Both the position numbers and the translations under genes were made by a program. 64,000 nt of DNA from NCBI GenBank assembly GCA_020725925.1, contig DYTN01000003.1, positions 18,591 to 82,590 of the forward strand, read 5' to 3'. This stretch comes from Methanobacteriota archaeon (lineage in GTDB: Archaea; Thermoplasmatota; Thermoplasmata; UBA10834). The stretch's first letter is position 1, and each line of letters begins with the position of its first letter. The notes beneath the pieces are model-generated. The model did not search any database and was not told where the DNA came from. It saw only the letters and a list, made by a program, of their open reading frames with translations. Of this stretch, positions 3,835-24,827 are shown in pieces.

Positions 3835-3970
3835 CTACGGCCAAGAGGCTCCGAAGAGCCTTGGGCTTCCCGAGGGCTCGCGCACCTCAGTACCGCGAAG
3901 AACGTAGGCGGGCTTAACTTCTGGGTTCGGAATGAGACCAGGTGTGGCCCCGCCACTTTGGCCGTCAGAC
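3835..3970 (-). rRNA. 5S ribosomal RNA, stand-alone and not linked to a 16S/23S operon
   Basis: The minus-strand sequence GGCGGGGCCACACCTGGTCTCATTCCGAACCCAGAAGTTAAGCCCGCCTACG...GGTACTGAGGTGCGCGAGCCCTCGGGAA matches the universal 5S loop B/C/helix III-IV consensus (CCACCUGAxCCCAUxCCGAACUCAGAAGUxAAxC...GUACUGxxGUGCGxGAGCCUCUGGGAA). Helix I is GACGGCCAAAG / CTCTTGGCCGT. Ends are ±5 nt. Confidence 0.75.
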
Positions 3971-4126: not shown

Positions 4127-4864
4127 ATGAGGAAGATCGCCGCTGTGATATTCGACCTCTGGGACACGCTCATCCAAGAGCGCCCGGGCGGGAACGAGAA
4201 GGTCGCGAGGCTGAGGATCGAGAGGATTGCCGACATCCTCACAAAGAGAGGCGCTGTGCACTCGCCGGAGGAAATCCGCCTCGCCTACAACAGAACCGGG
4301 GAATTCCTGGAGCTCGCATGGAGCAAGCGCAGGGACATGCCCGTCAGGGACCAGGTCCTATTCATGCTCAACTGCGTCGATGGGAAGCTCTCTCGGAGGA
4401 TCGGCAGGGAGGGCTTCGGGGAGGTGCAGAAGGTCTACGAGGAGAGCCTCCTGGACAACCCGCCGTTGCTGCTTCCGGGTGCGAAGGAGGCCCTAGGGGC
4501 GGTGAGGTCGAGGGGGTACAAGATGGGCCTGATCTCCAACACCGGCAGGACCCCAGGGAGGGTTCTGAGGGTCGTCATGGACCGCATGGACATATCGGAG
4601 TGCTTCAACGCGATGACCTTCTCCGACGAGATCCTCGTCCGCAAGCCTGCGGAGAAGGCCTTCAGGACGACCCTGGACAGGCTCAAGATTCTGCCGAAGG
4701 CGGCGGTGCACGTGGGGGACGACGCGGATAAGGACGTCCTGGGAGCGCGCAAGGCGGGCATGCGGACGATCCAGGTGCTCGCAAACGGCGAGGAGCGCTC
4801 TGAGGTCGCGGACTTCGTGGTGGGGTCCCTCGCCGAGGTGCCTGATAGGCTCGACGCGCTCTAG
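4127..4864 (+). CDS. HAD-superfamily hydrolase
   Basis: N-terminal IFDLWDTLI (HAD motif I variant), GLISNTG (motif II region), HVGDDADKDVLGARKAGM (motif IV). Confidence 0.75.
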   Translation: MRKIAAVIFDLWDTLIQERPGGNEKVARLRIERIADILTKRGAVHSPEEIRLAYNRTGEFLELAWSKRRDMPVRDQVLFMLNCVDGKLSRRIGREGFGEVQKVYEESLLDNPPLLLPGAKEALGAVRSRGYKMGLISNTGRTPGRVLRVVMDRMDISECFNAMTFSDEILVRKPAEKAFRTTLDRLKILPKAAVHVGDDADKDVLGARKAGMRTIQVLANGEERSEVADFVVGSLAEVPDRLDAL

Positions 4865-4900: not shown

Positions 4901-5617
4901 ATGTCAGGCGAGGACCTGTTCGGCCAGGCGTTCATGGATTTCCATAAGGGCAGAAGGTTCAAACTCAGGCTGGAGAGGGACGACGGCTACGTCGACGAGC
5001 AGGACCTGAGCCTGTACTTCAAGGACTTCGACGAGTTCCCAGACGTCGAGAGGAAGGCACTGAGGCACGCGAGGGGGAGAGTGCTGGACATCGGCGTCGG
5101 GGCGGGCAGGGTGGCGTTGCACCTCCAGAGGCAGGGGATGAGGGTCCTGGGGATCGATATCTCCGACAAGGCGCTCGAAGTCAGCAGACGAAGAGGGGTG
5201 CGCGAACTCGCCAAGATGTCAGCGTGCGACCTCAGGCTCCGGAGGGACAGCTTCGACACTGCGCTGGCGTTCTGCAACAACTTCGGTCTGTGCGGAAACA
5301 TGGATGGCGTCAGGGAGATGATGGAAAGGCTGCACAGGATCATCAGGGATGACGGCGTGTTCCTGGCGGAGTCGATCCACCCGACAAGGACTGACAACCC
5401 GAGGCATCTCAGCTATCACAGGCTCAATATCGAACGGGGCCGGCCACCGGGCCAGGCCACGCTGAGGGAGCTCTACCGAGGGAAGCGAGGCGAATGGTGG
5501 GATCTGCTGATGGTCACGCCCCTGGAGATGCGGCGGCTATGCACGAGCACCGGCTGGAGCATCGATAGGACCTACAGAGGCACCCCGGCGTACGTGTACG
5601 TCCTCAGGAAAGACTAG
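4901..5617 (+). CDS. Class I SAM-dependent methyltransferase
   Basis: VLDIGVGAGRVALHL (motif I, GxGxG) and downstream acidic motif II/III spacing. Substrate is unknown. Confidence 0.7.
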   Translation: MSGEDLFGQAFMDFHKGRRFKLRLERDDGYVDEQDLSLYFKDFDEFPDVERKALRHARGRVLDIGVGAGRVALHLQRQGMRVLGIDISDKALEVSRRRGVRELAKMSACDLRLRRDSFDTALAFCNNFGLCGNMDGVREMMERLHRIIRDDGVFLAESIHPTRTDNPRHLSYHRLNIERGRPPGQATLRELYRGKRGEWWDLLMVTPLEMRRLCTSTGWSIDRTYRGTPAYVYVLRKD

Positions 5618-6395: not shown

Positions 6396-9300
6396 CTAGG
6401 TCTTGTTCCTCAACCGGCGGGGGAAGACGGGAGCCTTCGAGTAGACTCCCTTCACGATGTCGTTGACCCCACGGACCTTGTCGAGGTCGCCGTCCCAGTC
6501 CTTGAGCACTTGACCGAACTGTTTCTCAATCGCACTCACGGCCTTCTGCATCTTGAGCGCGACCTTTCTGGATGCCTGCCCATGGAGTATGACCGCCAGG
6601 AAGAGATGCTCCCCCTTCTCGACTAGGACGCTCTTCGGGCCGAACTCGATCTTCCTCAAGGTGAACGACGTGATGTCCTTGAACGAGTCCTTCACGAAGT
6701 CCTGGATTGCCACAAACATGCTGCCGAGAACCTGGTCGTCCATTCCCGGCTTCAACCTCCTAGTGCTGTGCGAGATCAACCTTCCATCGTTGTATATCAC
6801 GAACGTCTCGTCCACAGCTATCCTGCCCTCTCGCACGAAATAACCTGAGACGCCGAGGAACGCGAGTACGGCGATAGTCAGGAGATAAGGCCAGGCGACG
6901 GTCAGGAAGTGCAACTCCACCGCCGATGTGTACAGCGGAGTCTGGACGGAATTGCCAGCAAGATCCGAGACGAAGGCGTAGAAAGAGATGTTGCCCTCCC
7001 TGACCGGGAGGTCCAGTACGCGGTAGAAGGTCCCACCGTCGTATCTGCCAACGGTGAAGGCCGAGAACGCAGTCTCACCCTGGAATCTGACGTAGAGCAC
7101 GATGCCACTCGCCTCGACGTTCTGGTCATGGACTCTGACTGTGATGTTCACTCTGCTCCCGCCGAAAAGAGAGGGCTGCGAGGTGTACACGAAGGCACTG
7201 GGAGCGACATCGTCAATCGTTATGCGGGTCTCAAGCCTAGACACGGTCCCCGCTTGATCGCCTGCCACCACGAGTACTGAATGCGGCCCCTCGATCCACC
7301 CACTGGTGTTGAGCTGGTACATGTCGCCGAAATGCATGGGGCCGCCGCCGTCAATATGGTAGACGACGTCTAGCAGAGCTGCCGAGTAGGGAGTGATGAG
7401 GAACACTATGGGGGTTCCGCTGCGAATGACATAGTCCGGCCAGGGACTGAGAATCTGGATGGCGGGAGGTCTGTTCCCGATGATTGCGCTCAGGAGAAAC
7501 GAGTACCCATCATCATCGGTCACGGTGATGTTGAGATGATAGTCACTTCCGAGGGCGTAGGAATGCTTCACTGGAGCTTGCAGGTCATTGATGACTGTTA
7601 GCATCGCACCATCGCCGAAATCATAGACCACTCGCACGACATCCGGGTACCGGACAAGAAGGGGCCCCAGGCCAAAGGTCACATTGCTCGTGTTTGAGAA
7701 GTCTCTTGGGGACTCCACGAGTCCGAAGAATTCTCCCCGAAATGGCTTGTGCCTGATCTCGATAGAGACCTGTTGTGTCGTGACAGAACCGTCGGAGTCG
7801 GTAACCCTGACCTTTGCTGTGTAGTTACCCACTTGAGTGTACGAACAAGTGGACGTGTTGGCGGTCGTTATTGCGTCGGCCTCGAACTCCGCTCCTGGGG
7901 CAACGAAATCCCATTCGTACATCACGGCGGGATCCAAACCCGTTACATCAGCGACGAAGACAACGTCATAGAATTCCTCGTAGTATCCATCCCAACTCTC
8001 CACCGGGACCGTGCTGAGGTCTACGAATGGAGGTATCTCCGTCACATGAAAGCCCAATGTGTAGGAACTCGTGTTGCCATCGAACTCCCTCACGATGAGG
8101 GTCACGCTGTAGTCTCCGTCCTGAAGGTTGGCGAAGCTCATCGCGGCCATCTCAGTGTCGGTAACGTAGAAAGACGAAGAATGGCCATCTGGATATGTCA
8201 GCGTCCAGTTCCAATCCACTATGCCGTCGAACGAATCTGTCGTGCTGATGAACCTGAAAGGCACCCCCTCTTGAGGGTCCGTTGCGTTGAGGACAAGCCC
8301 TGCTATCGGACCAACATCGAAGATGGCCAAGTCCCAAGTCGCGATCGCCGACATCCCGTCGATGTCGGTCACTCTTGAGGCAATCCTGTAGTACTCAGGA
8401 TAGGACTCCGCGCTGAAGACATGGGTAGTAGTATTGCTGTTCGGAGCATATGGATCAGGCACGAAGATCCCAGGAACATATGAATAGTCCCACTCATAGC
8501 TGACTATCGTGTCGACGGGCACACCGTGCCATTCATCGACAAATGCAACGAACGTCACGGGCGATCCCTCGAGTGCGCTTGGAGGGGCATCTATCCTAAC
8601 GTCTGGGGCCTGAGACTGCACGTAGATGAAGTATGTCTTGTTCCCGATGGATCCATCGGTGTCAGTGACCTCCAATGTCACCTCATGGGTTCCGTCCTGG
8701 AACTCGAGTGTCAGGTTGGATTCATCTCCGGTGTAGACTCCGTCGACAATCCACCTTCTGGAGGATACCGGATCGTAGGAGGAGGTCGTGTCCAAGAAGC
8801 TGACCAGCTGTCCTTCGCTCGGATTCTCTGGAGTCCATGAGAAACTGACAAGCGGAACGCTGTCAAGTACAGTGACGTTTGCCTGGTCGAAAGCGGGTTC
8901 GCCTCCCGGGTCAACCGCAATCACGGATATTGTGTAGTTGCGCACGTCCGCGTACGTGTGTGTCGGGGTCACATCCTTGATCCAGCCGCTCACATTGCCA
9001 TCGCCGAAATCCCAGAAGTACTCCATATAGGGAATCTCGGAAGTGCCGGTCTTCACAGTCCCGTTAATCTGGAGCTCGGAACCCTGCCTGGTGACGTAGG
9101 GGCCGCCTGCATCGACCTCGGGTGGCCTATTGATCTGCTCCCATGCCGACACGGACCGCGACCCAGCCTCCAGCACAAGCAGGTCGCCCCTGTTGTCGTG
9201 AGTAGCATCGCCTATTCTAGCGTACACTGGCTCTGCGCCTGTGACAAACGCTGCGGACGGCGTCGCGGGCAGGCCCACCCCAGCTTGGCGATAGAGGAAC

Positions 9301-11426
9301 AGAAGGTCCGCTGAGCCGAATATCGCTATGACATCCGCGTGGCCATCATCGGTCACGTCCTGGACTGAGACGTACTTTGGCACCTCTGGAAGGTCAAGTG
9401 TGCCGAAAGGATGAGGAGCCACAACGAAGTCGTCCTGGTCGAACAGGTACATCGAGCCGTCATACGGCCTCATGGCCACTATGTCCGCCTTGTCATCGCC
9501 CGTGATGTCGCCGCACCAGAGGCTGGTGAAGTCAGAACCCACCGTGTGCGACAGAGTGTAGCCCGGTGAGGAGGCGTCGAATGGCACCCCAGGCTGCTGC
9601 AGAAGCACGACTACCTTTCTAATCGAGCGAGTGTAGGCGATGTCGTTGAGGCCGTCAGAGTTGAAGTCCCCGACCGTGACGGCCCAAATCCCGGCGCCTG
9701 GGGTGAGCGCCACCTCGTAGGAATCGCCAAAGGCGTCAGGGCCCCCGTTGTTGAAGAAGATGTCTAGCTGGCCGTCGCCAGTGGCCGCCAGGATGTCGAG
9801 GAGCTCGTCATCGTTCAGGTCGTCGATTGCGATTGATGTGATCATGTTCCCGCACGTCAGGTTGATTTCGGAGTCAGGGAATGAGATGCCCCCGAAGAGG
9901 ATTCGGATCAATGAGCCGTCCTGCATCGTCACGAGGACATCGCGGTATTCGTCACCGTTGAGGTCAGACACGAGCATTCGGGAGGGGGTGAAGTCGAGAT
10001 CGACCGTCCGCGGGATTCCGCCGAATGAGATGAAGTAATCTACTGTGCGCGCAGCCCTGTTCAGGACCACGAGATCCTGAACGTCGTCTCCATCGATATC
10101 GCCTGCGGCGATCTCCGACGGAACGGCAGACCGGTTGATCCACGAAGTCGCGTTGCTGTTTGAGAAGTAGGGGCTGCGATTTGGATAGAGTCCAATGCTG
10201 GAACCCGCCCAGGCCATGCCGGCGCTCGCGACGACGATGTCTGGCAGAAGGTCTCCGTCAGCGTCGCCAATGGCTGCTGCGCTTGGCAGAGTGCCTGTGG
10301 GGAATCTGAAGTCGGGAACCATGGGCCAGAGCGGGATCGAACTCCCTTGGATCAGGCCCGCAGTGAGGTTGCCGTACTTCGACAGCAAGAGGAGATCATC
10401 CTCCGCACTGCCACTCATGTTTGCAGCGAGTACGAATGAGGGCTCGAAATCGAGCGTCCTATTGTAGTCCTCGACGGACGGAAGCGCTCCGAGGGACTGG
10501 AAGAAGAACCTGACTGCGGGGTCGGTCTGCGTTATCACGGCAAGGTCGTCAAGGGCGTCCCCGTCAAGCCTTCCTGAGGCAAGTCCGGACGGATTACCTG
10601 AAACGGTGAGAACCTGCGATGGCGCGCCACCCAACTCATATGGGCGGTCGAAGATCATGACCGTCGATGAGTAGTAATTGGCGACTGCTAGCTCTTCAGA
10701 GCCATCATCATTGAAGTCGCCCGACACGACAGCTTCTGTTCCCAGACCGCAAGAGGAAGCGTTGTTTGTGGCGAAGCTGGGACCAAAGAAAACCTCCAAT
10801 CTGCCAGGGCTCGACGTAGGATTCGCCCCAGCAGACGCAACTGCGATGTCCGGGTATTTGTCTCCAGAGAGATTGCCGACAATGAACGAGCGGGCATTCG
10901 CATTCGTTGAGTGATCAGGCCATATTTCATAGCTGCTCTCCGACGTGAGGTTGTACACCGTGAACCGTGGAGTCGAGAACACTGGCTCACGCTCCAGCGA
11001 CACGATCTGATGCCCTCCGGACGCGAACACGTCTATGGGAGCGATGCTCATCGGATTGTTCTGGGTCGTGATGTTGAACGATGGATAGGTCGGGAGCTTC
11101 CCGTCCAGGCCTCTGTAGAATATGGAGATGGTCTTGAGGGCATACGAGGAGACCATGAGGTCCGACTGGCCGTCTCCGTTCAGATCTGATATCTCCACAT
11201 CACTGGAGCCACCGCCTACCATGAGGGCCCTGGACACCAGTGGGTACTCGGTCACGTTGACGGAAGTGTCCATGGGGTCGGGGAACAGGATCGCATCCAC
11301 CGACGGCGGAATCTCACTTGCCTCAGCAAGCCGTTGATCGTCGGATGGAGGCACGAGAACGGGGACTGCTAGTGCGAACAGGACGAATGCGCACAGTATC
11401 TTTGCGGTCAACATATGACGAACCAA
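6396..11426 (-). CDS. Giant (1676 aa) type-I surface receptor: signal peptide, FG-GAP/VCBS beta-propeller repeats, PKD-type Ig domains, one TM helix and a cytoplasmic Roadblock/LC7-like domain
   Basis: N-terminal signal h-region ILCAFVLFALAVPVLV. At least 9 repeats with DxDGDG/DxNxDGxxD calcium-loop-like motifs. Several PKD modules (WDFGDG, YEWDFV...). TM helix WPYLLTIAVLAFLGVSGYFV followed by REGR. About 170-aa C-terminal tail with a Roadblock-like hydrophobic pattern. Dozens of NxS/T sequons lie only in the ectodomain. Confidence 0.85.
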   Translation of the reverse strand: MVRHMLTAKILCAFVLFALAVPVLVPPSDDQRLAEASEIPPSVDAILFPDPMDTSVNVTEYPLVSRALMVGGGSSDVEISDLNGDGQSDLMVSSYALKTISIFYRGLDGKLPTYPSFNITTQNNPMSIAPIDVFASGGHQIVSLEREPVFSTPRFTVYNLTSESSYEIWPDHSTNANARSFIVGNLSGDKYPDIAVASAGANPTSSPGRLEVFFGPSFATNNASSCGLGTEAVVSGDFNDDGSEELAVANYYSSTVMIFDRPYELGGAPSQVLTVSGNPSGLASGRLDGDALDDLAVITQTDPAVRFFFQSLGALPSVEDYNRTLDFEPSFVLAANMSGSAEDDLLLLSKYGNLTAGLIQGSSIPLWPMVPDFRFPTGTLPSAAAIGDADGDLLPDIVVASAGMAWAGSSIGLYPNRSPYFSNSNATSWINRSAVPSEIAAGDIDGDDVQDLVVLNRAARTVDYFISFGGIPRTVDLDFTPSRMLVSDLNGDEYRDVLVTMQDGSLIRILFGGISFPDSEINLTCGNMITSIAIDDLNDDELLDILAATGDGQLDIFFNNGGPDAFGDSYEVALTPGAGIWAVTVGDFNSDGLNDIAYTRSIRKVVVLLQQPGVPFDASSPGYTLSHTVGSDFTSLWCGDITGDDKADIVAMRPYDGSMYLFDQDDFVVAPHPFGTLDLPEVPKYVSVQDVTDDGHADVIAIFGSADLLFLYRQAGVGLPATPSAAFVTGAEPVYARIGDATHDNRGDLLVLEAGSRSVSAWEQINRPPEVDAGGPYVTRQGSELQINGTVKTGTSEIPYMEYFWDFGDGNVSGWIKDVTPTHTYADVRNYTISVIAVDPGGEPAFDQANVTVLDSVPLVSFSWTPENPSEGQLVSFLDTTSSYDPVSSRRWIVDGVYTGDESNLTLEFQDGTHEVTLEVTDTDGSIGNKTYFIYVQSQAPDVRIDAPPSALEGSPVTFVAFVDEWHGVPVDTIVSYEWDYSYVPGIFVPDPYAPNSNTTTHVFSAESYPEYYRIASRVTDIDGMSAIATWDLAIFDVGPIAGLVLNATDPQEGVPFRFISTTDSFDGIVDWNWTLTYPDGHSSSFYVTDTEMAAMSFANLQDGDYSVTLIVREFDGNTSSYTLGFHVTEIPPFVDLSTVPVESWDGYYEEFYDVVFVADVTGLDPAVMYEWDFVAPGAEFEADAITTANTSTCSYTQVGNYTAKVRVTDSDGSVTTQQVSIEIRHKPFRGEFFGLVESPRDFSNTSNVTFGLGPLLVRYPDVVRVVYDFGDGAMLTVINDLQAPVKHSYALGSDYHLNITVTDDDGYSFLLSAIIGNRPPAIQILSPWPDYVIRSGTPIVFLITPYSAALLDVVYHIDGGGPMHFGDMYQLNTSGWIEGPHSVLVVAGDQAGTVSRLETRITIDDVAPSAFVYTSQPSLFGGSRVNITVRVHDQNVEASGIVLYVRFQGETAFSAFTVGRYDGGTFYRVLDLPVREGNISFYAFVSDLAGNSVQTPLYTSAVELHFLTVAWPYLLTIAVLAFLGVSGYFVREGRIAVDETFVIYNDGRLISHSTRRLKPGMDDQVLGSMFVAIQDFVKDSFKDITSFTLRKIEFGPKSVLVEKGEHLFLAVILHGQASRKVALKMQKAVSAIEKQFGQVLKDWDGDLDKVRGVNDIVKGVYSKAPVFPRRLRNKT

Positions 11427-11520: not shown

Positions 11521-11530
11521 GTTTATTATC
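11521..11530 (+). promoter_or_regulatory. TATA-like box (GTTTATTATC) about 22-28 bp upstream of the S2P protease start at 11550, implying a short or leaderless 5' UTR
   Basis: Position and AT content. Confidence 0.35.
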
Positions 11531-11549: not shown

Positions 11550-11864
11550 GTGATGAGTGCCTCGATGAAGGTCGGGAGGATACTGGGCATACCGATCCAG
11601 CTCCACATCACCTTCCTTCTGATACTTCCCCTGTTCGCATATTTCTTCTCTGCTCCTCCAGAATCGGGCGAGGTGTTCGGGATCCAGCTCAGCTTCAAGG
11701 AGCTGGACGCCGAGCTTTGGGTCAAGTACGCCTTCGGGACCGTCGCGGCGGTGCTCTTCTTCGTAACGGTGCTGATACACGAGCTCGCGCACTCGTACCT
11801 GGCTCTCAGGTACGGCGTGAGGATCAAGGGGATCACCCTGATGGTCTTCGGGGGCGTCTCCTAG
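11550..11864 (+). CDS. Site-2 protease (peptidase M50) N-terminal part with the HExxH motif, ending at an in-frame TAG
   Basis: TM helices plus HELAHS (the zinc-binding HExxH of S2P/M50). It ends ...LMVFGGVS then TAG. The next ATG follows immediately in the same frame. Confidence 0.8.
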   Translation: MMSASMKVGRILGIPIQLHITFLLILPLFAYFFSAPPESGEVFGIQLSFKELDAELWVKYAFGTVAAVLFFVTVLIHELAHSYLALRYGVRIKGITLMVFGGVS

Positions 11865-12731
11865 ATGGAGGAGATACCCCGGCAGCCAGGCCAGGAGTGG
11901 CGCATGGCGTTCGCAGGCCCTCTGTCCAGCCTGCTGGTGGGAGCTGCATCCTACCTTCTGATGGTGGTGCTGAAGCTGGTGGAGAGCGGCTCCGTCATAA
12001 TCGAGGGCATGGTGATCCTGCTCGGCCTGATGGCCCTGTACAACATGCTCCTCGCGGCGTTCAACCTCATACCGGCCTTCCCGATGGACGGCGGCCGGGT
12101 GCTGAGGGCCTTCTTCGCCACCAGGATGCCCTACCTCGAGGCGACCAAGAAGGCCGCCAGGATAGGCAGATACTTCGCGATCGGCATGGCGGTCTTCGGC
12201 ATCTTCTACAACTTCTGGTTCATCCTGATCGCGCTGTTCGTCTACATAGGTGCATCCGAGGAGGAGCAGGCGACCACGATCTCGGAGAGCCTGCAGGGCG
12301 TGACCGTCAGGCAGCTGATGTCTAGCTCGGTCCAGGTGGTACACCCTGACATGACAGTGCAGCAGCTCCACGACCTCATGCTATCGACGAGGCACATGGG
12401 CTTCCCGGTGGTCGACAACGGCCTCGTTGGCATAGTGACGCTCTCCGACACTCACAAGGTGTCCCGGGAGCAGCTCCCGCACGCGCGCGTCAGAGACATT
12501 ATGACGCGCGATGTCGTGACCGTCCCACCGGACATGGACGCATCGAAGGCGCTCTACCTGACGTCGGAGAGGAGGATAGGGAGGCTCGTCGTGATGGAGG
12601 GCGGCCGGCTTGCGGGCATCGTGACCAAGAAGGACTTCCTGAGGGCCGTCGACGTGATGGCTGCTCGGAAGCAGGCGACCAGATGGGGCCAGCAGTTCCC
12701 GCCGACGGAGCCACCGATCGCGCCTGTCTGA
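11865..12731 (+). CDS. Site-2 protease (M50) C-terminal part (NxxPxxxxDG motif) fused to a CBS-domain pair. Same frame as 11550-11864 and separated only by a TAG.
   Basis: FNLIPAFPMDGGRVLRA (M50 LDG motif), then two CBS domains (VTVRQLM...GIVTLSD, VRDIMTRDVVTV...GIVTKKDF). It aligns to S2P homologues continuously across the TAG (FGGVA-M-x-x-IP). Confidence 0.8.
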   Translation: MEEIPRQPGQEWRMAFAGPLSSLLVGAASYLLMVVLKLVESGSVIIEGMVILLGLMALYNMLLAAFNLIPAFPMDGGRVLRAFFATRMPYLEATKKAARIGRYFAIGMAVFGIFYNFWFILIALFVYIGASEEEQATTISESLQGVTVRQLMSSSVQVVHPDMTVQQLHDLMLSTRHMGFPVVDNGLVGIVTLSDTHKVSREQLPHARVRDIMTRDVVTVPPDMDASKALYLTSERRIGRLVVMEGGRLAGIVTKKDFLRAVDVMAARKQATRWGQQFPPTEPPIAPV

Positions 12732-13846: not shown

Positions 13847-14769
13847 CTCGACTCCTTGATCAGGTCCATGTACATCAGCTCGAGAGGCAGTCCGACCGGA
13901 CTGAACCCGGTGATTGGAGTCCCCATGGCCATGATATCCCTGAGCAGGGCGGCCTTGTCCTCCTGTGACCCCTCGAATGTCACCAGGAAGGTGGAGCCGT
14001 TCACGCGCTCGAGGGCTCTCACGTTGCTCAGCGCTCGGACCTTGGACAGCAGCGACTCGTCGGCATCACGCAGCATCGTGATCTCGATCTTTGTCACCTT
14101 GGTGAGGTTCTTGAGGTTGTCTATGGAGTCGTACACGAGCAGCTTGCCCTTGTCAATCAGGGCCGCCCTGTCGCAGGTCTCCTGGACCTCGAGCAGAAGG
14201 TGGGAGCTCATGAAGATCGTGTAGTGCTGCTTCTTCAGAGCGCGTATGATCTCGCGCACCTCGACCATGCCCCTGGGGTCGAGGCCGCTCGTCGGCTCGT
14301 CAAGGATGAGTATGTCGGGCTCGTGAAGTAGGGCCTGGGCTATGGCGAGGCGCTGCTTCATTCCCTTCGAGAACTTGCCTATCCTGGTGCTCCTCCATTC
14401 GTTCAGCTTGACCTCAGTGAGCACCTCGTTCGACCTGGCCTTGATTTCTGAGGAATGCATGCCCCTGACTCTGCCGAGATACGCAAGCGTCTCTTCAGGC
14501 GTGAGGTAAGGATAGAACTCAGGCGTCTCGACGACTGCCCCGACCTTGCTAAGGGCCATCTTCGGGTCCCTGAGCACGTCTACTCCGTGCAGATACGCGC
14601 GCCCGCTCGTGGCAGTGATCAAGTTCGTCAGGATCTTGATTGTCGTGGTCTTGCCAGCACCGTTCGGCCCAAGGAACCCCACCATCGTCCCTTCCGGGAC
14701 CTTCAACGTGAGGTTGTCCACCGCCCTGATGGGGCCAAAGGTCTTCGTCAGGTTCTGTATCTCAATCAT
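13843..14769 (-). CDS. ABC transporter ATP-binding protein (ABC-2 subfamily) with a C-terminal accessory domain
   Basis: Walker A GPNGAGKTT, signature LSKGMKQRL, Walker B ILILDEPTSGLDP, H-loop. Confidence 0.9.
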   Translation of the reverse strand: MIEIQNLTKTFGPIRAVDNLTLKVPEGTMVGFLGPNGAGKTTTIKILTNLITATSGRAYLHGVDVLRDPKMALSKVGAVVETPEFYPYLTPEETLAYLGRVRGMHSSEIKARSNEVLTEVKLNEWRSTRIGKFSKGMKQRLAIAQALLHEPDILILDEPTSGLDPRGMVEVREIIRALKKQHYTIFMSSHLLLEVQETCDRAALIDKGKLLVYDSIDNLKNLTKVTKIEITMLRDADESLLSKVRALSNVRALERVNGSTFLVTFEGSQEDKAALLRDIMAMGTPITGFSPVGLPLELMYMDLIKESR

Positions 14770-14861
14770 GCTATGTGCGTCCCTCAGCTGTCTTACCGAG
14801 CGAGCGACGAAACCCTATATAATGGAACCTGCGGAAGGCCACGAGACACCAATGCGACCGT

Positions 14862-15137
14862 TCATCTCCCGAGCGCGCCGTAAAGCTCCTTGGCGAGTTT
14901 CTCAGCCTCCGCGCGCTCCTTCACCGGGTGCATCAGGAGGCGCCCGTGGGGGTAGACGGTGATCTCCACACCCTTCTTGACGACCAGCATCACCTTCGGG
15001 TTGGCCAGTACCTCGTACCCCTTGGACGACAGCTTGCGCTCGCACTCGTCCAGGTTCAGGGAGACCTTGCCCTTGGGCACGGCCTCATAGGCGTCATACT
15101 TGCACGGCTTGACGGCCAGGAACTCCAAGCAGATCAC
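14862..15137 (-). CDS. Small hypothetical protein (about 91 aa), GTG start overlapping the upstream stop (GTGA)
   Basis: The ORF at 14862-15251 in the track overlaps the P-loop kinase gene. The first in-frame start after that stop is GTG at about 15137. No recognisable family (possibly a beta-grasp-like fold). Confidence 0.35.
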   Translation of the reverse strand: MICLEFLAVKPCKYDAYEAVPKGKVSLNLDECERKLSSKGYEVLANPKVMLVVKKGVEITVYPHGRLLMHPVKERAEAEKLAKELYGALGR

Positions 15138-15676
15138 TTCCGAGCGAGTATGCTGTCCAGGAGGAGATTGACGCCCCTCTTGAGCTCCTTCAGGTCGGAC
15201 TCGTTTATCAGCAGATAGTCCGCCAGGGAGATCGCCCCGCCCAGCCCCCAATCCAGCTCTCGCTTGTCGCGGGCGTCGAACTCAGCCCTGCTCACCGGGG
15301 AATCGGGCCTGCGCCTAGCCACGAGGCGCTCATATCTCGTCTTGGGCGAGGCATGGATCGCCACGACCTTGACATCGTCCCCGAACGCCTGCTTGAACGC
15401 GCGGATTTCGTCCGGGCCCCTTGTGCCGTCGATGAGCACGAGCTCCCCGCCGACATAGGGGATGGTCCGTTTGGCCCAGATGTCTATGCCGTACCGCTTT
15501 CGCTCTTCGTTCGCCAAGGTCCCGATGCTCGAGTCCGAAAGGTCGAGTCCGAACTCCTTCGCCTTGTCACGCACGATGTCCCCCATCCGGATGATCTTGG
15601 CGCCCCTGGCCTGACAGACCTTCAGGAACTCCTCCTTCCCTGCACCTGGCATTCCGGTCGTGACTATGATCATCAT
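15134..15676 (-). CDS. P-loop nucleotide/nucleoside kinase, UPF0200-like (dephospho-CoA-kinase-like/adenylate-kinase-like)
   Basis: MIIVTTGMPGAGKEEF Walker A at the N-terminus, DGTRGPDE lid-like region, 180 aa. Confidence 0.65.
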   Translation of the reverse strand: MMIIVTTGMPGAGKEEFLKVCQARGAKIIRMGDIVRDKAKEFGLDLSDSSIGTLANEERKRYGIDIWAKRTIPYVGGELVLIDGTRGPDEIRAFKQAFGDDVKVVAIHASPKTRYERLVARRRPDSPVSRAEFDARDKRELDWGLGGAISLADYLLINESDLKELKRGVNLLLDSILARK

Positions 15677-15744
15677 GACATGCTCGACACTCTACACGCT
15701 AGCACTTACAAAAACCTTTGGAGCCAGCGCCGTGGACGCGCAGC

Positions 15745-16935
15745 TCACTTCAGCGGCCGGCCAAGCGCGGACTTCGCGTATTCAGAAACCGCCTCGAAGT
15801 CGAACCCAGCCTTTGCCCAGTATCGCGGGCAGAGGCCGAGCCCGAGGCATGCGTCGTACGTGGCTTGGTCGGGGAAGGAGTCCTCGAAATTCCTAGCTCC
15901 CGAGGGTGCGATGTCGGAAGGTTTCGAGAGGACGGCGGACACGAGCTCAAGGTCGATGCGCTTGCCAAGAGAAGCACAATGCGAAAGCACCGTAACCGGC
16001 TCCGCACCTGCCTTGGCGCAAGCGGAAAGAATCTTACATGCAGTCCTCGCATCTATGCCCATGTCGAATGCCTTCGAGAGTGCAGCTGCATCGTAGTGGA
16101 GATAGCCGGGCTCCTTCGCGACGAGTCTGAGCTCTCTGGGTTCCTCCTCGGTCTTCAGGTAAGTACGGCACGGGTAGGGGCAGCCGTAGCAGCCGACCAA
16201 CCTATGCACGAGTCCCGAGAAGTCATCCCTGGCCAGGTTCGGGTAGAAGGACGCCAATCCGGAACTCATCCCGAGCGTCGTCAGGTGCTCCCTCATCAGC
16301 AGTATGGAGTCTTCGAAGTGCTTGTCCGGCTCGGACAGCTCCAGCTCGCCCATGCCTCTGAACGCGACCGCGAGCACGTTCTTCGCCCCGAGAGCTGACG
16401 CCGTGCCGACCTTGTCCTCGCCACCCCAGTAGTTCACGACGAGCTGCGATGCTTTCAAGCAGGCGTCTCCCCAAGGACCGCATGACGCGACCTGGATCTT
16501 TGCATCGCCTTGTTCCGATCGGACCTTGTCAGTCCGACCCCACGAGCTGAGGGCCCTCATATCAGGCGCTGCAACGAACTCCAATTGACCATCCCTGGCC
16601 CAGACATACCCTTGGCCCGGAGCCTTTCCCTTGAGCACGATGAAATCGAATCCTGTGAGCTTGAGTTCGAACCCCGCGAAGCCCATCAGCGGCATGATCT
16701 TCGACCCTCCTGAGCCGCCCGCGCGCACGATTCCAGCGCATGCTGCTGGCACAAAACTGCCTGTCAGCACGCCCGTGCCGAACACGATGGAATCCTGACC
16801 GTGCTCGGTCGCGAGCGCCTCCGCCACCGCAATGGACGAGGAATCGTCCAGGCCTCTGTCCTCCGAGTACCCCTGCTCCGAGGCCTTCCCTGAGGAGAGG
16901 TCGAGCACGCCGATCCTCCCGTTCCTGAGATACAC
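15745..16935 (-). CDS. Aldehyde:ferredoxin oxidoreductase (AOR) family protein, short form (396 aa)
   Basis: AOR-like N-terminus (MYLRNGRIGVLDLSSGK...) and the CxxCxxxC [4Fe-4S] motif (CYGCPYPC). It is about 200 aa shorter than canonical AOR. Confidence 0.55.
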   Translation of the reverse strand: MYLRNGRIGVLDLSSGKASEQGYSEDRGLDDSSSIAVAEALATEHGQDSIVFGTGVLTGSFVPAACAGIVRAGGSGGSKIMPLMGFAGFELKLTGFDFIVLKGKAPGQGYVWARDGQLEFVAAPDMRALSSWGRTDKVRSEQGDAKIQVASCGPWGDACLKASQLVVNYWGGEDKVGTASALGAKNVLAVAFRGMGELELSEPDKHFEDSILLMREHLTTLGMSSGLASFYPNLARDDFSGLVHRLVGCYGCPYPCRTYLKTEEEPRELRLVAKEPGYLHYDAAALSKAFDMGIDARTACKILSACAKAGAEPVTVLSHCASLGKRIDLELVSAVLSKPSDIAPSGARNFEDSFPDQATYDACLGLGLCPRYWAKAGFDFEAVSEYAKSALGRPLK

Positions 16936-16936
16936 C

Positions 16937-17340
16937 CTAGTCCACCACCATGATGCATCCCGTGGGACACACCTTCGCGCACTTGGCCTTGCCCCCGCAC
17001 AGGTCGCACGGCTCCCTCAGGAGTATGGGCTTCGCCCCTGGACCTCCCGACCCAGGCGCCTGTTGACCCTCGGATACCCCCTCTGGCCGGGCTAGCACGA
17101 GCCCTCCCGACTTCGTCTTCAGCACCAGGCCGAAGTAGTCGGCCTTGTCGTCAATGTGCAGGATGATGCTTGAGGACATTGGCGTGAGCACAGAATCCCT
17201 GTTCAGGCTGCACGCGGTCTCGCAGAGCCCGCAGCAGATGCACCTCAGGGGCTCGATCTTGAGTCTCAGGCTCCCACCGGGCCTTCCATCTACCGGATGT
17301 GCTCCGCCACATCGGTTGTGATGCGGTCGCAGTACACGCA
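16937..17340 (-). CDS. 2x[4Fe-4S] ferredoxin, start uncertain
   Basis: CICCGLCETAC and CDLCGGKAKCAKVCPTGC cluster motifs. There is no canonical start between the pyrI stop and the first cluster motif, so the start probably overlaps pyrI. Confidence 0.45.
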
Positions 17341-17745
17341 CCTGAGCGTAATCGGCTTCTTCGACTCGACCACGAACTCCGCCTCGACCGGCTCGTCCTT
17401 GTTCGTTATGCAGCCCGGATTGGAGCACTCCATAATCCCCTTGATCACGTTCGGGACTTCGACCACGAACTTCTCGGCCACGTTGTAGTCCCTGATGATG
17501 TTGATGGTGGCGTTGGGGGAGATGAGGGCTATCCTGTCGAGCTCCTTGGGGTCCAGCTCCCGGTCCTCTATCTTGACTATGTCCTTCCACCCGGCCTTCT
17601 TGCTCGGCACGTGCATGAGCACGCTCACTGTCGAGCTGACCTCGTCCTTCACACCGATGATCTTCAGGACCTTCAGCGCCATGCCGACGGAGATGTGGTC
17701 TATGACGGTGCCGTTGCGGATCGGTGTGACCTTGAACTCCTTCAT
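17290..17745 (-). CDS. pyrI: Aspartate carbamoyltransferase regulatory subunit
   Basis: MKEFKVTPIRNGTVIDHI... N-domain and a C-terminal Cys4 zinc domain (CSNPGC...CVYCDR). Confidence 0.95.
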   Translation of the reverse strand: MKEFKVTPIRNGTVIDHISVGMALKVLKIIGVKDEVSSTVSVLMHVPSKKAGWKDIVKIEDRELDPKELDRIALISPNATINIIRDYNVAEKFVVEVPNVIKGIMECSNPGCITNKDEPVEAEFVVESKKPITLRCVYCDRITTDVAEHIR

Positions 17746-18677
17746 TTCAGTCCCCCCAGTATCAGGCCGAGGAGCGCCATACGCACAGGCACGCCGTTGA
17801 ACGCCTGGTCGAAGTACTTCGCGTGCTCCGTCGCGTCGACCTCGGACGATATCTCGCCCACCCTCGGAAGCGGGTGCATGATCATCAGGTCGCGCTTGAC
17901 GTCCTTCAGCATCGGCAGGTCGATCCTGTACATCCCCGCGACCTTCTGGTACTCCGCGGGGTCCGGGAAGCGCTCCTTCTGGATGCGCGTCACATAGAGC
18001 ACGTCCGCGTCCTTGATGACCTCCTCCAGCGAGCCTGATATCCTGGGCTTGCGGCCCAGGGACTCTATCTGCTTCAGGTGCTCCTTGGGGATCTGCAGCG
18101 AGGGCGGGGCGACGAAGGTGAGGTCCGCGCCGAACATCGCGAGCGCCTCGGACAGCGAGTGCACGGTCCTTCCGTACTTGAGGTCCCCGACGATGACCAC
18201 GTTGTTCCCCTCGACCTTCTTCTTCTCCTTCCTGATGGTGAACAGGTCGAGCATCGTCTGGGTCGGGTGCTGGCCCGCTCCGTCACCGGCGTTGATTATG
18301 GGCCGAGAGGCGAAGTGCGCCGCCAGCCTGGCCGCGCCCTCCTGGGGATGCCTCAGCACGATGACATCGCTGTACGAGTCGACCATCCGTATCGTGTCGG
18401 CCAGAGTCTCGCCCTTCGCGACGGACGCCCCTGCGGGCTGGTCGAACCCGAGCACTCTCCCGCCCAGGCGAGTCATGGCGGCGTCGAAGGAGAGCCTCGT
18501 CCTCGTCGAGGGCTCGTAGAACAAGGAGCCAAGCACGTGTCCCTCGAGGAGCACGCTCCGCTCCTCCCCCTTTGCAATCGGGACCATCTTCTCCGCGAGC
18601 TTGAGGACATGTTCGATCTGTTCTCTCGAAAAATCACGGATGGAGACGACGTCCATCCCCTTGAACCCTGCTGACAT
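17742..18677 (-). CDS. pyrB: Aspartate carbamoyltransferase catalytic subunit
   Basis: STRTR, HPxQ, HPLP motifs. The start was chosen as MSAGFKGMDVVSIRDFS by alignment to archaeal PyrB N-termini; the track ORF extends to 18761. Coupled to pyrI (ATGA). Confidence 0.93.
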   Translation of the reverse strand: MSAGFKGMDVVSIRDFSREQIEHVLKLAEKMVPIAKGEERSVLLEGHVLGSLFYEPSTRTRLSFDAAMTRLGGRVLGFDQPAGASVAKGETLADTIRMVDSYSDVIVLRHPQEGAARLAAHFASRPIINAGDGAGQHPTQTMLDLFTIRKEKKKVEGNNVVIVGDLKYGRTVHSLSEALAMFGADLTFVAPPSLQIPKEHLKQIESLGRKPRISGSLEEVIKDADVLYVTRIQKERFPDPAEYQKVAGMYRIDLPMLKDVKRDLMIMHPLPRVGEISSEVDATEHAKYFDQAFNGVPVRMALLGLILGGLK

Positions 18678-18761
18678 CAAGCTCCTAATCTTCTGAAAGA
18701 ATATAAGCCTTACATCAACGCAAACCGGAGGGAACGGGCGACGGGACGCCACGTCTGGCAA

Positions 18762-19231: not shown

Positions 19232-19495
19232 TTGCGCGGTATTGTCAATACCGTGGGAGCGATTCTCTTGCAGAAAGACGCGACGCTTGACGCGAGGGGG
19301 CTCATGTGCCCCATGCCCATAGTGCAGCTCGCGAAGAAGGTTAAGGAGCTGAAGTCCGGCCAGGTGCTTGAACTCTTGGCCGATGACCTGGGATCGAAGG
19401 AGGACGTGCCTGCCTGGTGCTCGAGGACCGGCAATGCGCTGGTCGGCACCGAGGGGGAGGGCAAGGTCCTCAAGTTCTACATCAGGATGAAGTGA
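19232..19495 (+). CDS. tusA: TusA-like sulfur carrier protein
   Basis: LDARGLMCPMPIV has the CPxP active-site motif. Length and C-terminal beta-strands are TusA-like. Confidence 0.8.
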   Translation: MRGIVNTVGAILLQKDATLDARGLMCPMPIVQLAKKVKELKSGQVLELLADDLGSKEDVPAWCSRTGNALVGTEGEGKVLKFYIRMK

Positions 19496-19514
19496 GGCAG
19501 AAAGAGGTATTGAG

Positions 19515-19919
19515 ATGACCGAAAAGCTATCGATGGTAGTGAGCGAGGGGACCTTCGACAAGGCGATGATGCCCCTCATAATGGGGACCACGGCCGCTGC
19601 GATGGGGACCGAGGTGCACGTGTTCTACACGTTCTTCGGGACCAAGCTGATCACCAAGGGCGTGAAGCCCAAGCTGCCCGGGTTCTGGCGACTGTTCACA
19701 GGGATGTTCGTCAAGAGGATGAAGAAGGTCGGCATCGCGGAGTACCACCAGCTCGTGAAGGACGCTCAGGAGATGGGCGTGAACTTCTACGCGTGCAGCA
19801 CCACCATGGGCCTCTTGGGGGTCAAGGAGAGCGACCTGCTGCCGGGCGTGAAGGTGCTTGGCGCTGCTGCGTTCTTGAAGCTCGCCTCTGAGTCGAAGGT
19901 CAGCCTGTTCATCGGGTGA
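19515..19919 (+). CDS. DsrE/DsrF-like family protein (COG2210, YrkE/DsrE2-type)
   Basis: MVVSEGTFDKAMMPLIMGTTAAAMGTEVHVFYTFFG matches the COG2210 DsrE-like consensus. Confidence 0.7.
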   Translation: MTEKLSMVVSEGTFDKAMMPLIMGTTAAAMGTEVHVFYTFFGTKLITKGVKPKLPGFWRLFTGMFVKRMKKVGIAEYHQLVKDAQEMGVNFYACSTTMGLLGVKESDLLPGVKVLGAAAFLKLASESKVSLFIG

Positions 19920-19928
19920 GATGATAGC

Positions 19929-20231
19929 ATGCCGAGAACGGCATTCGTCATCCTGAAGTCGCCTCAGGAGCAGGACCCGACGCATTCGATGAGGAGGGTC
20001 GCTGAGCCTGCGGAGTCCAGTGCGATCCTCCTGGAGGACGGCGTATACCAGGCGTTGCTTGCCGGCGCGGCTGAAAAGCTGGGCAAGGCGGCGGCCGACG
20101 TGCTCGTTTCCAGGGATGACCTCGAGGCGAGGGGCTTCGGACCGGCTGACCTCAGAATAGGCAGGGCCGCAGAGTATGGGGACATCGTGGACTGCATAAT
20201 GGAGCGGACAGAGCGGTCCGTCACCGTGTGA
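19929..20231 (+). CDS. DsrH/TusB-like sulfur relay protein
   Basis: 100 aa. FVILKSP...AILLEDGVY aligns with TusB/DsrH (LHxLxxSP...LLLxxDGV). Confidence 0.65.
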   Translation: MPRTAFVILKSPQEQDPTHSMRRVAEPAESSAILLEDGVYQALLAGAAEKLGKAAADVLVSRDDLEARGFGPADLRIGRAAEYGDIVDCIMERTERSVTV

Positions 20232-20240
20232 GGGATTGCG

Positions 20241-20600
20241 ATGGCCAAGACTCTCACGATACTGTGGAGGACCGGCTCGATGATGGCCATGGACGCCAAC
20301 GTAGCTGCTAAGCTGGCGAAGGCCGCCCTCGAGAAGGGCTACAAGGTCAACATGTTCGGGTACGGGGAAGGCGTCACGGCGGCCAAGAAGGGCCAGAAAC
20401 CCAAGCGGTTCCCCAACGTCGGCGAGGAGCTGGAGGCGGCGTGCAAGGAGGGCGTGAGCATAGCCGTGTGCGAGACATGCTACGCCGCCAGGGGCTTCGA
20501 GCGCGGGGAGGAGATATCCGGGGCCAAGGTCGGCAGCCTGACGAACGACCTGTTCAGGTTCCTGTCCGAGTCCGACAGGCTCGTGACAATCGCGAGGTGA
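20241..20600 (+). CDS. DsrE/TusD-like sulfur relay protein
   Basis: 119 aa. IAVCETCYAARG holds the conserved active-site Cys, in the position of TusD Cys78. Confidence 0.7.
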   Translation: MAKTLTILWRTGSMMAMDANVAAKLAKAALEKGYKVNMFGYGEGVTAAKKGQKPKRFPNVGEELEAACKEGVSIAVCETCYAARGFERGEEISGAKVGSLTNDLFRFLSESDRLVTIAR

Positions 20601-20962
20601 TGACCATGGCCGGATCGATTCTTGTTCTCATCACAAAGGCTCCATACGGGCTTGAGGAGGCGTTCGCGGGTCTGAGGCTCGCCCTTGCCACGGGGGTGAA
20701 CGGAATGAAGACCTCCGTCCTGATGGTCGAGGATGGCGTCTTCAACGCGGTCGGATCACAGAGGTCGGAGGCCGTGAGGATGCCGTCCAACATCGAGGCG
20801 ACCAAGGAACTGTACGACTTCGACGTCCCGGTCTATGTCGTCAAGGAGGACATGGAGGCCAGAGGAGTCGCCGAATCGAAGCTCTTCGACGGGCTGAAGG
20901 TTGTTCCTGCGTCACTCGTCAGGAAGCTCGTCGCGGAGCACGATTTGGTCACGACTTTCTGA
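20600..20962 (+). CDS. DsrF/TusC-like sulfur relay protein
   Basis: ILVLITKAPYG...SVLMVEDGVF. The ATG overlaps the preceding stop (TGATGA). Confidence 0.65.
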   Translation: MTMAGSILVLITKAPYGLEEAFAGLRLALATGVNGMKTSVLMVEDGVFNAVGSQRSEAVRMPSNIEATKELYDFDVPVYVVKEDMEARGVAESKLFDGLKVVPASLVRKLVAEHDLVTTF

Positions 20963-21027: not shown

Positions 21028-22734
21028 GTGCGATTCGAGCCCCTTGAAAGAGACGGATTGGGCAGGATCGGCGTGCTCGAGCTCGACGGCAAGAAGCACA
21101 CCACGCCCACCACCGCTTTCGTTGACACTGAGAAGTATCCAGCCCCACCGGGCTCCCTGACCCTCAGCATCGAGCGGGGCGGTGAGGCCGGTCTGGTCAT
21201 CGCGCGGTCCCGGTTCGCGACAGGCCCGGAGGCGGGCGAGGCACAGGCCGATCTGAGGCCGGGGACGAGAGGGTCGCCCTATGCTCCTCCGCAACCAGCG
21301 GGCGGCTTTGCGACCGTCGCCGACATCGCGGGGGGATTGCTCGATTCCACGGAGTTCGTGGCAGCGATTGGGAAGATCAAGGGTTCAGAGGACCTCCTCA
21401 GGCCGCTCTACTGTTCTGTGATGGGGCTCCCCCACAGGCTCGCGCTCCTGACTTACTGCGGGTTCGATGTGTTCGATTCAGTGCCCCTGATCATGGCGGC
21501 CGAGAACGGCACATACCTCACGACCACAGGTCCACTCGAGCACAGCGCTCTGAGGGAACTCCCTTGTTCATGCCCCGCCTGCTCCGAAGGGGTCACAGAC
21601 AAGAAGCACCTCCTCGCCCACAACTGCCACGAAGCGATTTCCGAGCTGAAGCTGGTCAGGCATGCCATCTCCCAGGGCAGGCTTCGTGAGCTGGTCGAAT
21701 CGAGGGTGCGGTCGGATCCGTGGCTCGTGCAGGACCTGCGGCTCCTGGACCTCGAACACTATGAGCTGCTGGAGATGCACACCCCGGTCCGGGGCTCGCC
21801 GTTCCACGCGGGGTCGAAGGAGTCACTGATGCGGCCGGATATCGTGCGCTGGCGGAGGCGCCTCGAGGCGAGGTATGCCAAGCCCGAGGGGACGCGTATC
21901 CTGCTCCTATTCCCCTGTTCCGCCAGGAAGCCCTACTCCTTGTCCCAATCACACAAGCGCTTCCGGGAGGCCGTTGCGTCCAGTGGCGCGGGCGGGATCG
22001 TGCACGAGGTCGTCGTCACCTCGCCCCTCGGACTAGTCCCTCGGGAGCTGGAGCTGTTCTACCCAGCCAAGGACTACGACATTCCAGTGACTGGCCACTG
22101 GGACAACGACGAGAAGAAGATGGCCCAGGAGATGGTCACATGGCTCGTGACGACACAGAGGTACGACCTGGTGATTTCGCATCTTGGCGACGAGCGCGAG
22201 CCCGTCAACGCGGTCCTGAAGGACTTCGAGGACACTTCGCTCGGCCACCCGGGATCGAGGGAGAGCCTCGACAACCTCGAGGCAGTGCTGAGGGAGCACG
22301 CCGGAGACACGGGGATGGGAGACCGTACGCTGGCAGACATGCGAGCCCTCTGCGTATTCCAGTTCGGGCCTGCAGGCGGGAATCTGTGTGAAGGCGCGGT
22401 GATAGCCGGGAGGTGGCCGAACCTGAAGATCATGAGGGGGCGTACGCAACTCGGCATGCTCACGGGCGAGAGAGGCATGGTGTCTTTGACCATGGACGGC
22501 GCGAGGGTTCTCGCATCCGCCGATGCATACTGCGTCGAGATCGACGACTTCGCTCCCAAGGGCAATCTGTTCGCGATAGGAGTGGAGAAGGCCGACGGGC
22601 AGATCCGCATCGGAGACGATGTCGCAGTCACACACAAGGGCGAGGTCAGGGCTGCGGGTGTGGCGAAGATGACGCCGGTCGAGATGGAGCTGGCCGAGAG
22701 GGGAGAGGCCGTGCACATAAGGCACTCGCTCTGA
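21028..22734 (+). CDS. arcS: Archaeosine synthase ArcS-like protein (truncated TGT-like domain, DUF5591 and PUA), GTG start
   Basis: TGT-like N-terminus (LGRIGVLELDGKKHTTP), Zn site CSCPAC...H, DUF5591 block LLFPCSARKPYS, and a C-terminal PUA (IGDDVAVTHKGEVRAAGVAKM). A low-complexity insert lies at aa 60-100. Confidence 0.7.
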   Translation: MRFEPLERDGLGRIGVLELDGKKHTTPTTAFVDTEKYPAPPGSLTLSIERGGEAGLVIARSRFATGPEAGEAQADLRPGTRGSPYAPPQPAGGFATVADIAGGLLDSTEFVAAIGKIKGSEDLLRPLYCSVMGLPHRLALLTYCGFDVFDSVPLIMAAENGTYLTTTGPLEHSALRELPCSCPACSEGVTDKKHLLAHNCHEAISELKLVRHAISQGRLRELVESRVRSDPWLVQDLRLLDLEHYELLEMHTPVRGSPFHAGSKESLMRPDIVRWRRRLEARYAKPEGTRILLLFPCSARKPYSLSQSHKRFREAVASSGAGGIVHEVVVTSPLGLVPRELELFYPAKDYDIPVTGHWDNDEKKMAQEMVTWLVTTQRYDLVISHLGDEREPVNAVLKDFEDTSLGHPGSRESLDNLEAVLREHAGDTGMGDRTLADMRALCVFQFGPAGGNLCEGAVIAGRWPNLKIMRGRTQLGMLTGERGMVSLTMDGARVLASADAYCVEIDDFAPKGNLFAIGVEKADGQIRIGDDVAVTHKGEVRAAGVAKMTPVEMELAERGEAVHIRHSL

Positions 22735-24703: not shown

Positions 24704-24827
24704 GTGTGCATTGCACGCATCATTCTGACTGGATATCAAGCCATCGGGCTGCGACCGTCCGCCGAGAAAGTTTATATGCTCTTCCGGTAATGCTGACCCA
24801 ACTTGCCAGAGGGGGAGCTGGACTATC

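Follow-up and report, generated by a model that had tools for sequence, protein, structure and literature searches.

A single in-frame TAG interrupts an otherwise conserved CBS-domain site-2 protease gene in one Thermoplasmata assembly

A TAG codon stands inside what otherwise reads as a single, well-conserved gene for a membrane protease, and the locus therefore raises the question of whether it marks a gene broken very recently, an error in the consensus sequence, a protein made in two chains, or a codon that is decoded as an amino acid.

One protease gene in two ORFs of the same frame

In the window, by which we mean the whole 64-kb stretch of DNA analysed here, the in-frame TAG at 11862–11864 divides one M50 site-2 protease (S2P) gene, as read from the sequence and the list of open reading frames (ORFs), and as seen against the codons of the orthologues; all features of the gene lie on the plus strand. 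The N-terminal piece (11553–11861, 103 codons) carries the HExxH motif, and the C-terminal piece (11865–12731) consists of 288 codons followed by TGA (12729–12731). The junction reads ...LMVFGGVS-TAG-MEEIPRQPG..., with the ATG at 11865 directly adjoining the TAG (TAGATG, a stop–start distance of 0) in the same frame as the first ORF. Both pieces give a colinear, gap-free alignment to single 392-aa orthologues, so they are not chance neighbours and, judged by this alignment, are to be read as one gene. The N piece is 77% identical to residues 1–103 of the orthologue on the most closely related contig (L001) and the C piece 85% identical to its residues 105–392. The original prediction had placed the TAG in frame between two ORFs, in exact agreement with the sequence and the ORF list, but the GTG at 11550 with which it opened the first ORF does not serve as a start in homologues: the start codon is the ATG one codon downstream, at 11553 (MSAS..., as in homologues and in the database call of the 103-aa product, P0125). 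A TATA-like box, TTTATTAT (11522–11529), was read from the sequence ~30 nt upstream of this ATG, in the 126-nt divergent intergenic region that separates the protease gene from a 1676-aa gene on the minus strand; it suggests that the protease gene may have a promoter of its own, with a leader that would be very short or absent.

A joined translation, with X at the TAG, was used for domain and structure searches. It matched Peptidase_M50 (PF02163) with 76.4 bits against a cut-off of 27.2, and CBS (PF00571) in two stretches with 98 bits. The zinc-binding and catalytic HExxH motif is HELAH (11778–11792; cac gag ctc gcg cac), at residues 77–81 within predicted helix 56–87; H77, E78 and H81 are invariant in an alignment of 21 sequences and match HELGH of Methanocaldococcus jannaschii MJ0392 (3B4R). 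The second S2P signature, NLIPAFPMDGG (12063–12095, residues 172–182), contains the zinc-ligand Asp D180 (codon 12087–12089), and its N172, P175, P178, D180, G181 and G182 are likewise invariant and match NLIPAFPMDGG of 3B4R; the third zinc-ligand motif here is PMDGG, not the LDG named in the original prediction. A tandem CBS pair, or Bateman module, occupies 12297–12653, as indicated by PF00571, by the match to 5G5R and by the strand and helix pattern of the structural model. The locus accordingly has the M50 profile, the HExxH in a transmembrane helix, the NxxPxxxxDG motif and the C-terminal CBS pair of the S2P family and its CBS-domain subgroup, while the HExxH and Asp motifs do not lie on a single uninterrupted polypeptide, since the TAG falls between them.

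An AlphaFold model was built from the 21-sequence alignment, with a mean pLDDT of 82. In this model the N piece would contribute transmembrane helices 21–34 and 56–87 and a beta-hairpin at 95–103 (strands 95–98 and 101–103), and the C piece four predicted transmembrane helices, the third zinc ligand and the CBS pair. The TAG corresponds to residue 105 of 393 and falls in loop 104–112, which is placed between the beta-hairpin that follows the HExxH helix (56–87) and transmembrane helix 113–142, and has a lower confidence than any other block of the membrane core (pLDDT 58).

Comparison with known systems places the gene among familiar proteins. The membrane core is colinear with that of MJ0392 (3B4R; E 7e-41, query 60–244 against chain 38–214), and the alignment crosses the TAG position, with GGVA-M-MDKIP in MJ0392 against GGVS-*-MEEIP in the window, so that the TAG stands at the residue matching a Met of MJ0392. 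The archaeal site-2 protease CBS module (5G5R/5G5X) shows the same M50-CBS design, 5G5R matching residues 255–373 with E 1.7e-23, and Bacillus SpoIVFB (8VJL), which has the same M50 core and CBS pair, matches over the core with E 2e-14. These CBS-domain proteases are single polypeptides, whereas the window gene is interrupted.

The codon in relatives and the age of the change

A search of 5.8 billion proteins yielded 7189 homologues, the best 120 of which were examined. The 119 others among these 120 are all uninterrupted, with lengths of about 336–419 aa and identity of up to 83%; most have 381–419 aa, and a few of 336–354 aa are fragments at contig ends. The sole split product among the best 120 is the window's own 288-aa piece (P0018, identical, on a 146,147-bp NCBI contig). 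Its 103-aa partner from the same contig, P0125, was found in a protein search centred on the junction, which gave at 100% identity only this product and returned proteins of up to 228 aa; fragments of roughly 230–260 aa may have been missed by it. Short homologues (P0121–P0127) were considered as natural split forms and rejected, being contig-end fragments or a chimera.

At the DNA level, 17 orthologous loci from Logan, GTDB representative genomes and JGI metagenomes were compared. The codon at the site is TCG in 9 of the 17, CAG in four, TCT in two, and GCG, GCC and TCA in one each; a stop occurs in none of the 17. All three of the nearest relatives with DNA have TCG, namely L001 (a Logan contig from SRR21705950, 83% amino-acid identity) and, at 78%, L002 (CAZTFD010000054.1) and L012. 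The orthologues on L001 (P0001) and L002, from Thermoplasmata metagenome-assembled genomes (MAGs), have the same length (392 aa), with TCG in place of the window's TAG. The window and L001 share their gene order over 16 genes: S2P, ABC-2 permease, ABC ATPase, a small ORF, an AAA kinase-like gene, an AFOR_N protein, a second small ORF, pyrI, pyrB, TrmB, TusA and DsrE/F/H. The ancestral codon was therefore most likely TCG (Ser), which would become TAG by one transversion, C to A at 11863.

Relatives differ in the residue at this position (S, Q, A or E, with Met in MJ0392), and in the 21-sequence alignment the FGGV and ME..P residues on either side show little or no variation. The original prediction, that a single sense codon had become TAG in a protein whose homologues read straight through, is borne out by the 119 listed homologues and by the 17 loci, all of which have a sense codon (TCG, CAG, GCN, TCT or TCA); its rendering of the homologues as FGGVA-M holds for the read-through and not for the residue, which in close homologues is mostly Ser (FGGVS-S-MEE) rather than Met. 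No relative among the 120 listed homologues and 17 loci has the same split with an independent ribosome-binding site for the second half. Among the best 120 of 7189 homologues and the 17 orthologous loci, the split is, by these comparisons, unique to this one assembly. A conserved two-gene arrangement was rejected, as the split is kept in none of the 119 listed homologues and 17 loci.

Apart from the TAG, the gene shows every sign of being maintained. The orthologous genes are all 1179 nt long and align with it without gaps, and the orthologue alignment reveals no frameshift, indel or further stop beyond the single TAG. Comparison with L001 gives a dN/dS of 0.12 in the N piece and 0.105 in the C piece. 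When L002 or L012 serves as outgroup, 23 amino-acid changes (8 + 15) are private to the window and 24 (6 + 18) to L001, and all invariant columns of the 21-sequence alignment are intact in the window protein. The absence of decay noted in the original prediction is thus upheld by dN/dS, private changes and invariant residues alike, and constraint on the gene appears unrelaxed, from which it follows that the TAG would be extremely recent, not real, or harmless. An old or decayed pseudogene was rejected, because a dN/dS of about 0.11 and private changes of 23 versus 24 fit only a very young lesion.

Fresh mutation or consensus error

The reading that we favour, at about even odds, is that the TAG is a real and very young nonsense allele, a nascent pseudogene fixed in the assembled population. 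An unprogrammed C to A change at 11863 (TCG, Ser, to TAG) would have broken an otherwise fully conserved gene whose product would be a CBS-domain S2P, one of the intramembrane zinc metalloproteases that make up family M50, homologous to M. jannaschii MJ0392. As written, the gene would give a 103-residue fragment with the HExxH motif, that is with two of the three zinc ligands and without the Asp ligand, and at most a separately reinitiated 288-residue fragment with the Asp ligand and the CBS pair. Given the established S2P active-site architecture (3B4R), neither fragment alone could form an active site. We infer a genuine base, not a consensus error, and a non-functional product; in evolutionary terms the change would be very new, since the rest of the gene shows no decay. 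Several points weigh on the other side. With dN/dS near 0.1 in a gene shared by thousands of relatives, selection should act against such an allele, and its presence in the consensus is mildly surprising; the exact abutment of TAG and ATG would equally suit a functional split; and neither reads nor a second assembly cover the site, which leaves room for a consensus error.

Such an error in consensus, sequencing or assembly is a less probable alternative. The true codon would then be TCG or another sense codon, the A at 11863 an artefact or a minority variant, and the product an intact 392-aa protease; an otherwise perfect gene, with its dN/dS of about 0.11 and its invariant residues kept, looks exactly as an intact gene should. 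Just one assembly for the species is present among the collections searched, and the JGI metagenomes and GTDB representative genomes gave no same-species sequence, only relatives of ≤78% identity. The site also lies inside a short inverted repeat and just downstream of a GGGGGC run. Inverted repeats and G runs are linked to sequence-specific Illumina errors.

Against an error speaks the apparent quality of the surrounding sequence. No other split or frameshifted gene is visible among the window genes scanned, whose domain matches are full-length. Two short Logan contigs of run SRR13164374, an independent assembly found through the pyrI and AAA-domain gene products, are 100% identical to window positions 16277–18692 and 14288–15734, a total of 3.9 kb of neighbouring sequence without one mismatch. 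Public reads of the same population therefore exist, and the consensus is accurate over this neighbouring stretch; a literature search on the run gave no hit. A polished consensus, moreover, seldom contains substitution errors, and stops arise from no more than a few percent of random substitutions. However, the SRR13164374 contigs come no closer than 1.5 kb to the protease gene, and exact-product look-ups (the 288-aa piece, the ABC-2 permease with two starts, and the ABC ATPase) gave no Logan sequence across 11863. Because no independent sequence across this base was recovered, a real mutation and a consensus error are not separable. The original prediction had left pseudogene, error and recoding undecided; recoding is now reduced to a very small probability, and mutation and error stay together.

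Possible protein from both sides of a real TAG

That the TAG is real and the protease still made, either as two chains by reinitiation or as a full-length protein by amber decoding, is unlikely. The first of these routes, for which we hold a slim expectation, would have translation terminate at the TAG and reinitiate at the ATG, the 103-aa and 288-aa fragments then forming a two-chain protease in the membrane; both the reinitiation at the abutting TAG–ATG and the two-piece enzyme are speculative. In Haloferax volcanii, termination–reinitiation operates when two genes overlap or lie a few nucleotides apart, as in a native +1 pair, and has fallen off once the gap reaches 13–22 nt (PMC10666635), so that the contiguous stop and start (TAGATG) are within working distance and reinitiation is plausible as a mechanism. 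The break would fall in the low-confidence loop 104–112, at a variable residue (S, Q, A or E), where a break in the chain should be most tolerable, and both pieces are undecayed, a state that recency explains equally well. On the other hand, the ATG appears to be no acquired start: it encodes the ancestral, conserved Met of S-M-E-E found in all relatives. It has no dedicated Shine–Dalgarno sequence, the sole candidate, GGGGG at −15 to −11, stemming from the invariant F-G-G codons. With no split relative among the 119 other listed homologues and 17 loci, there is no sign of selective upkeep, and neither the listed homologues nor the solved-structure matches include a two-chain S2P. Translationally coupled pairs (Huber et al. 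2019, 2023) likewise have adjacent stop and start on one strand, but native pairs are conserved and typically overlap by −4 or −1, whereas the present case is a one-off from a point change inside a gene.

The second route, very improbable in our judgement, is decoding of the TAG as pyrrolysine (Pyl, through pylT/pylS) or as a standard amino acid by a near-cognate or suppressor tRNA, to give the full-length protease. S, Q, A, E and M are all tolerated at this position, and any inserted residue would probably be accepted. Four-category analysis of TAG codons as described by Kivenson et al. formally makes the protease a category 1 gene (an internal TAG with homology on both sides), and in this it resembles the category 1 genes of Genetic Code 34 or ambiguous-code archaea, which likewise have an internal TAG and homology to one protein on both sides. 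The genomic signature of those genes is, however, absent here: TAG is an abundant terminator, the window contains no Pyl machinery, and the lineage is not reported to be Pyl+.

A codon-usage-based call gave 59 genes in the window, with stop usage of TGA (38), TAG (18, including the protease) and TAA (1); TAG terminates 17 of the 56 other complete genes (30%). According to Shalvarjian et al., the TAG share in Pyl+ archaea has a median of 5% and a range of 1–27%, against 22% in Pyl− archaea, so that the window exceeds the Pyl+ range and is near the Pyl− median. Both Kivenson et al. and Shalvarjian et al. warn that a high TAG share is not in itself enough to exclude Pyl, and in Pyl+ archaea the TAG can be read both as a stop and as Pyl without any cis element, Pyl being able to appear by drift. 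For that reason more weight is given to overlaps and to orthologous gene ends. At orthologous C termini aligned to the last residue, the window may have TAG where L001 has TGA, and the reverse: the ABC-2 permease ends in TGA in the window and TAG in L001, the 84-aa ORF in TAG and TGA, and the last DsrE-family gene in TGA and TAG, respectively, with pyrI ending in TAG at the same residue in both. When the 17 other TAG-ending genes were sorted into the four categories, 12 fell into category 4, in which readthrough would overrun a neighbour by more than 60 nt, out of frame or antisense; four were indeterminate (category 3) and one, with a 7-codon extension, belonged to category 2, which leaves the protease as the only category 1 case. 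Kivenson et al. regard prevalent category 1 and rare category 4 genes as the mark of TAG reassignment and category 4 as giving it no support; the pattern in the window, with one category 1 gene against 12 of category 4, is the opposite. TAG is an ordinary stop in this organism. The argument against Pyl that the original prediction drew from TAG-ending neighbours has gained in strength through the 17 of 56 genes, the TAG/TGA interchange and the 12 of 17 overruns.

The search for the machinery itself points the same way. The 64-kb window contains no tRNA gene and no Rfam family but a lone 5S rRNA, and Pfam scanning of its genes found no PylS, PylB, PylC or PylD and no methylamine-methyltransferase or methanogenesis gene. 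The eRF1-like gene at 23666–24829 is Pelota, not aRF1, and therefore gives no information on release factors. Within Thermoplasmatota, Pyl has been reported for Methanomassiliicoccales-type methanogens, whereas the relatives here are uncultured Thermoplasmata MAGs. The genes of the window resemble those of a peptide-fermenting heterotroph, with an Opp-type transporter, a 2-oxoacid:ferredoxin oxidoreductase and peptidases. On this local evidence (the 30% TAG share, the interchange of stops, the 12 category 4 genes and a window free of tRNA and pyl genes), Pyl or Code 34 reassignment was rejected. The HAD (4127–4864) and methyltransferase (4901–5617) genes, which are in frame across a TAG with a 12-codon spacer, were considered as a second in-frame TAG case and rejected, as they are separate genes with separate domains and share a frame by chance.

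Programmed readthrough was also rejected, with a stop at the site in none of the 17 loci, hence a TAG conserved in no relative, and no stimulatory RNA structure downstream, where the fold of the 120 nt from the site is no better than that of shuffled sequences (z = −0.22). A short hairpin does span the site (11856–11875), in which TCTCCT (11857–11862) pairs with AGGAGA (11869–11874), and the ancestral C at 11863 would give a 7-bp stem with loop GATG. The same codons form this small hairpin in relatives too, and we read it, from the sequences compared, as a by-product of the conserved V-S-S-M-E-E-I codons and no recoding signal.

The feature is of a kind already known, a one-base unprogrammed break of a widely conserved gene in a single MAG, and its biological significance is minor, a lone premature stop in one MAG being an everyday sign of fresh mutation or consensus error. 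Should the TAG prove real and the protease still be made, the locus would represent a nascent split membrane protease or an unexpected amber decoding: with two chains it would be an intramembrane metalloprotease split in nature and seen as the split arises, and with decoding a case of amber decoding in a lineage of Thermoplasmata for which recoding of TAG is not known. The case also shows that an in-frame TAG in Thermoplasmata can be tested locally against Pyl recoding, by combining the interchange of stops at orthologous gene ends with readthrough overlap. For curation, the locus is to be annotated as one disrupted S2P-CBS gene and not, as in the database, as two proteins of 103 aa and 288 aa. 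A second M50 protease, which carries PDZ domains, is intact in the window at 61944–63590.

M50 proteases and an apparent second in-frame TAG

The interrupted CBS-type protease is not the only site-2 protease encoded in the window. A Pfam scan revealed a paralogous M50 protease of 548 residues (window 61944-63590, plus strand), which has PDZ domains inserted in its core and is intact; it could provide partial cover if the CBS-type enzyme is lost. The HAD hydrolase gene (4127-4864, plus strand) and the SAM methyltransferase gene (4901-5617, plus strand) share a reading frame, with only a TAG and 12 codons between them. This pair was considered as another case of an in-frame TAG and was rejected, as these are two distinct genes, each with its own complete domain.

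Related sequence in public data sets

Two short Logan contigs, L028 and L029, both from the public read set SRR13164374 and independent of the assembly of the window, proved to be 100% identical to window positions 16277-18692 and 14288-15734, respectively. Because of this identity, that run is likely the source sample of the window. In another data set, the short S2P homologue P0123 is a 212-residue product encoded on an ENA contig of 6301 bp. Its residues 1 to ~150 correspond to the orthologous S2P N-terminus, while its tail matches the MoaA C-terminal domain (PF06463); that contig is probably chimeric or mis-assembled.

Surface proteins and transporters

Two very large predicted surface proteins are encoded on the minus strand: one of 1676 residues with FG-GAP and PKD repeats (6396-11426), whose gene is transcribed divergently from that of the CBS-type protease, and one of 1108 residues with CarboxypepD_reg and PKD repeats (36220-39546). 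The plus strand also encodes two ABC ATPases of the Opp/Dpp type, one with 537 residues at 58565-60178 and the other with 457 residues at 60171-61544. In both of them the ABC_tran match is split into two separate stretches, which suggests sizeable insertions inside the nucleotide-binding domain.

Translation-related, cofactor and sulfur-relay genes

The genes for Pelota (23666-24829, minus strand; TIGR00111, 300 bits), methionyl-tRNA synthetase (25843-28131, minus strand) and ABCE1/RLI (29703-31469, plus strand) lie close to one another and form a translation and ribosome-rescue gene cluster. The Pelota reading frame has room for an N-terminal extension of 42 residues. A 558-residue protein (21058-22734, plus strand), with matches to the TGT, DUF5591 and PUA domains, resembles an archaeosine-pathway tRNA-guanine transglycosylase or an ArcS-type enzyme. 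No tRNA genes were found across the whole 64 kb window, and the 5S rRNA gene (3849-3969, minus strand; 74.7 bits) is solitary, with neither 16S nor 23S nearby. The nickel-pincer cofactor biosynthesis genes for LarE (1178-1990) and LarB (1987-2748), both on the plus strand, overlap by 4 nt, and the latter ends in TAG. In a sulfur-relay cluster (19253-20962, plus strand), four genes of the DsrE/DsrF/DsrH family come directly after the gene for TusA, and the same gene order is seen in the closest relative, Logan contig L001, at positions 7858-9592.
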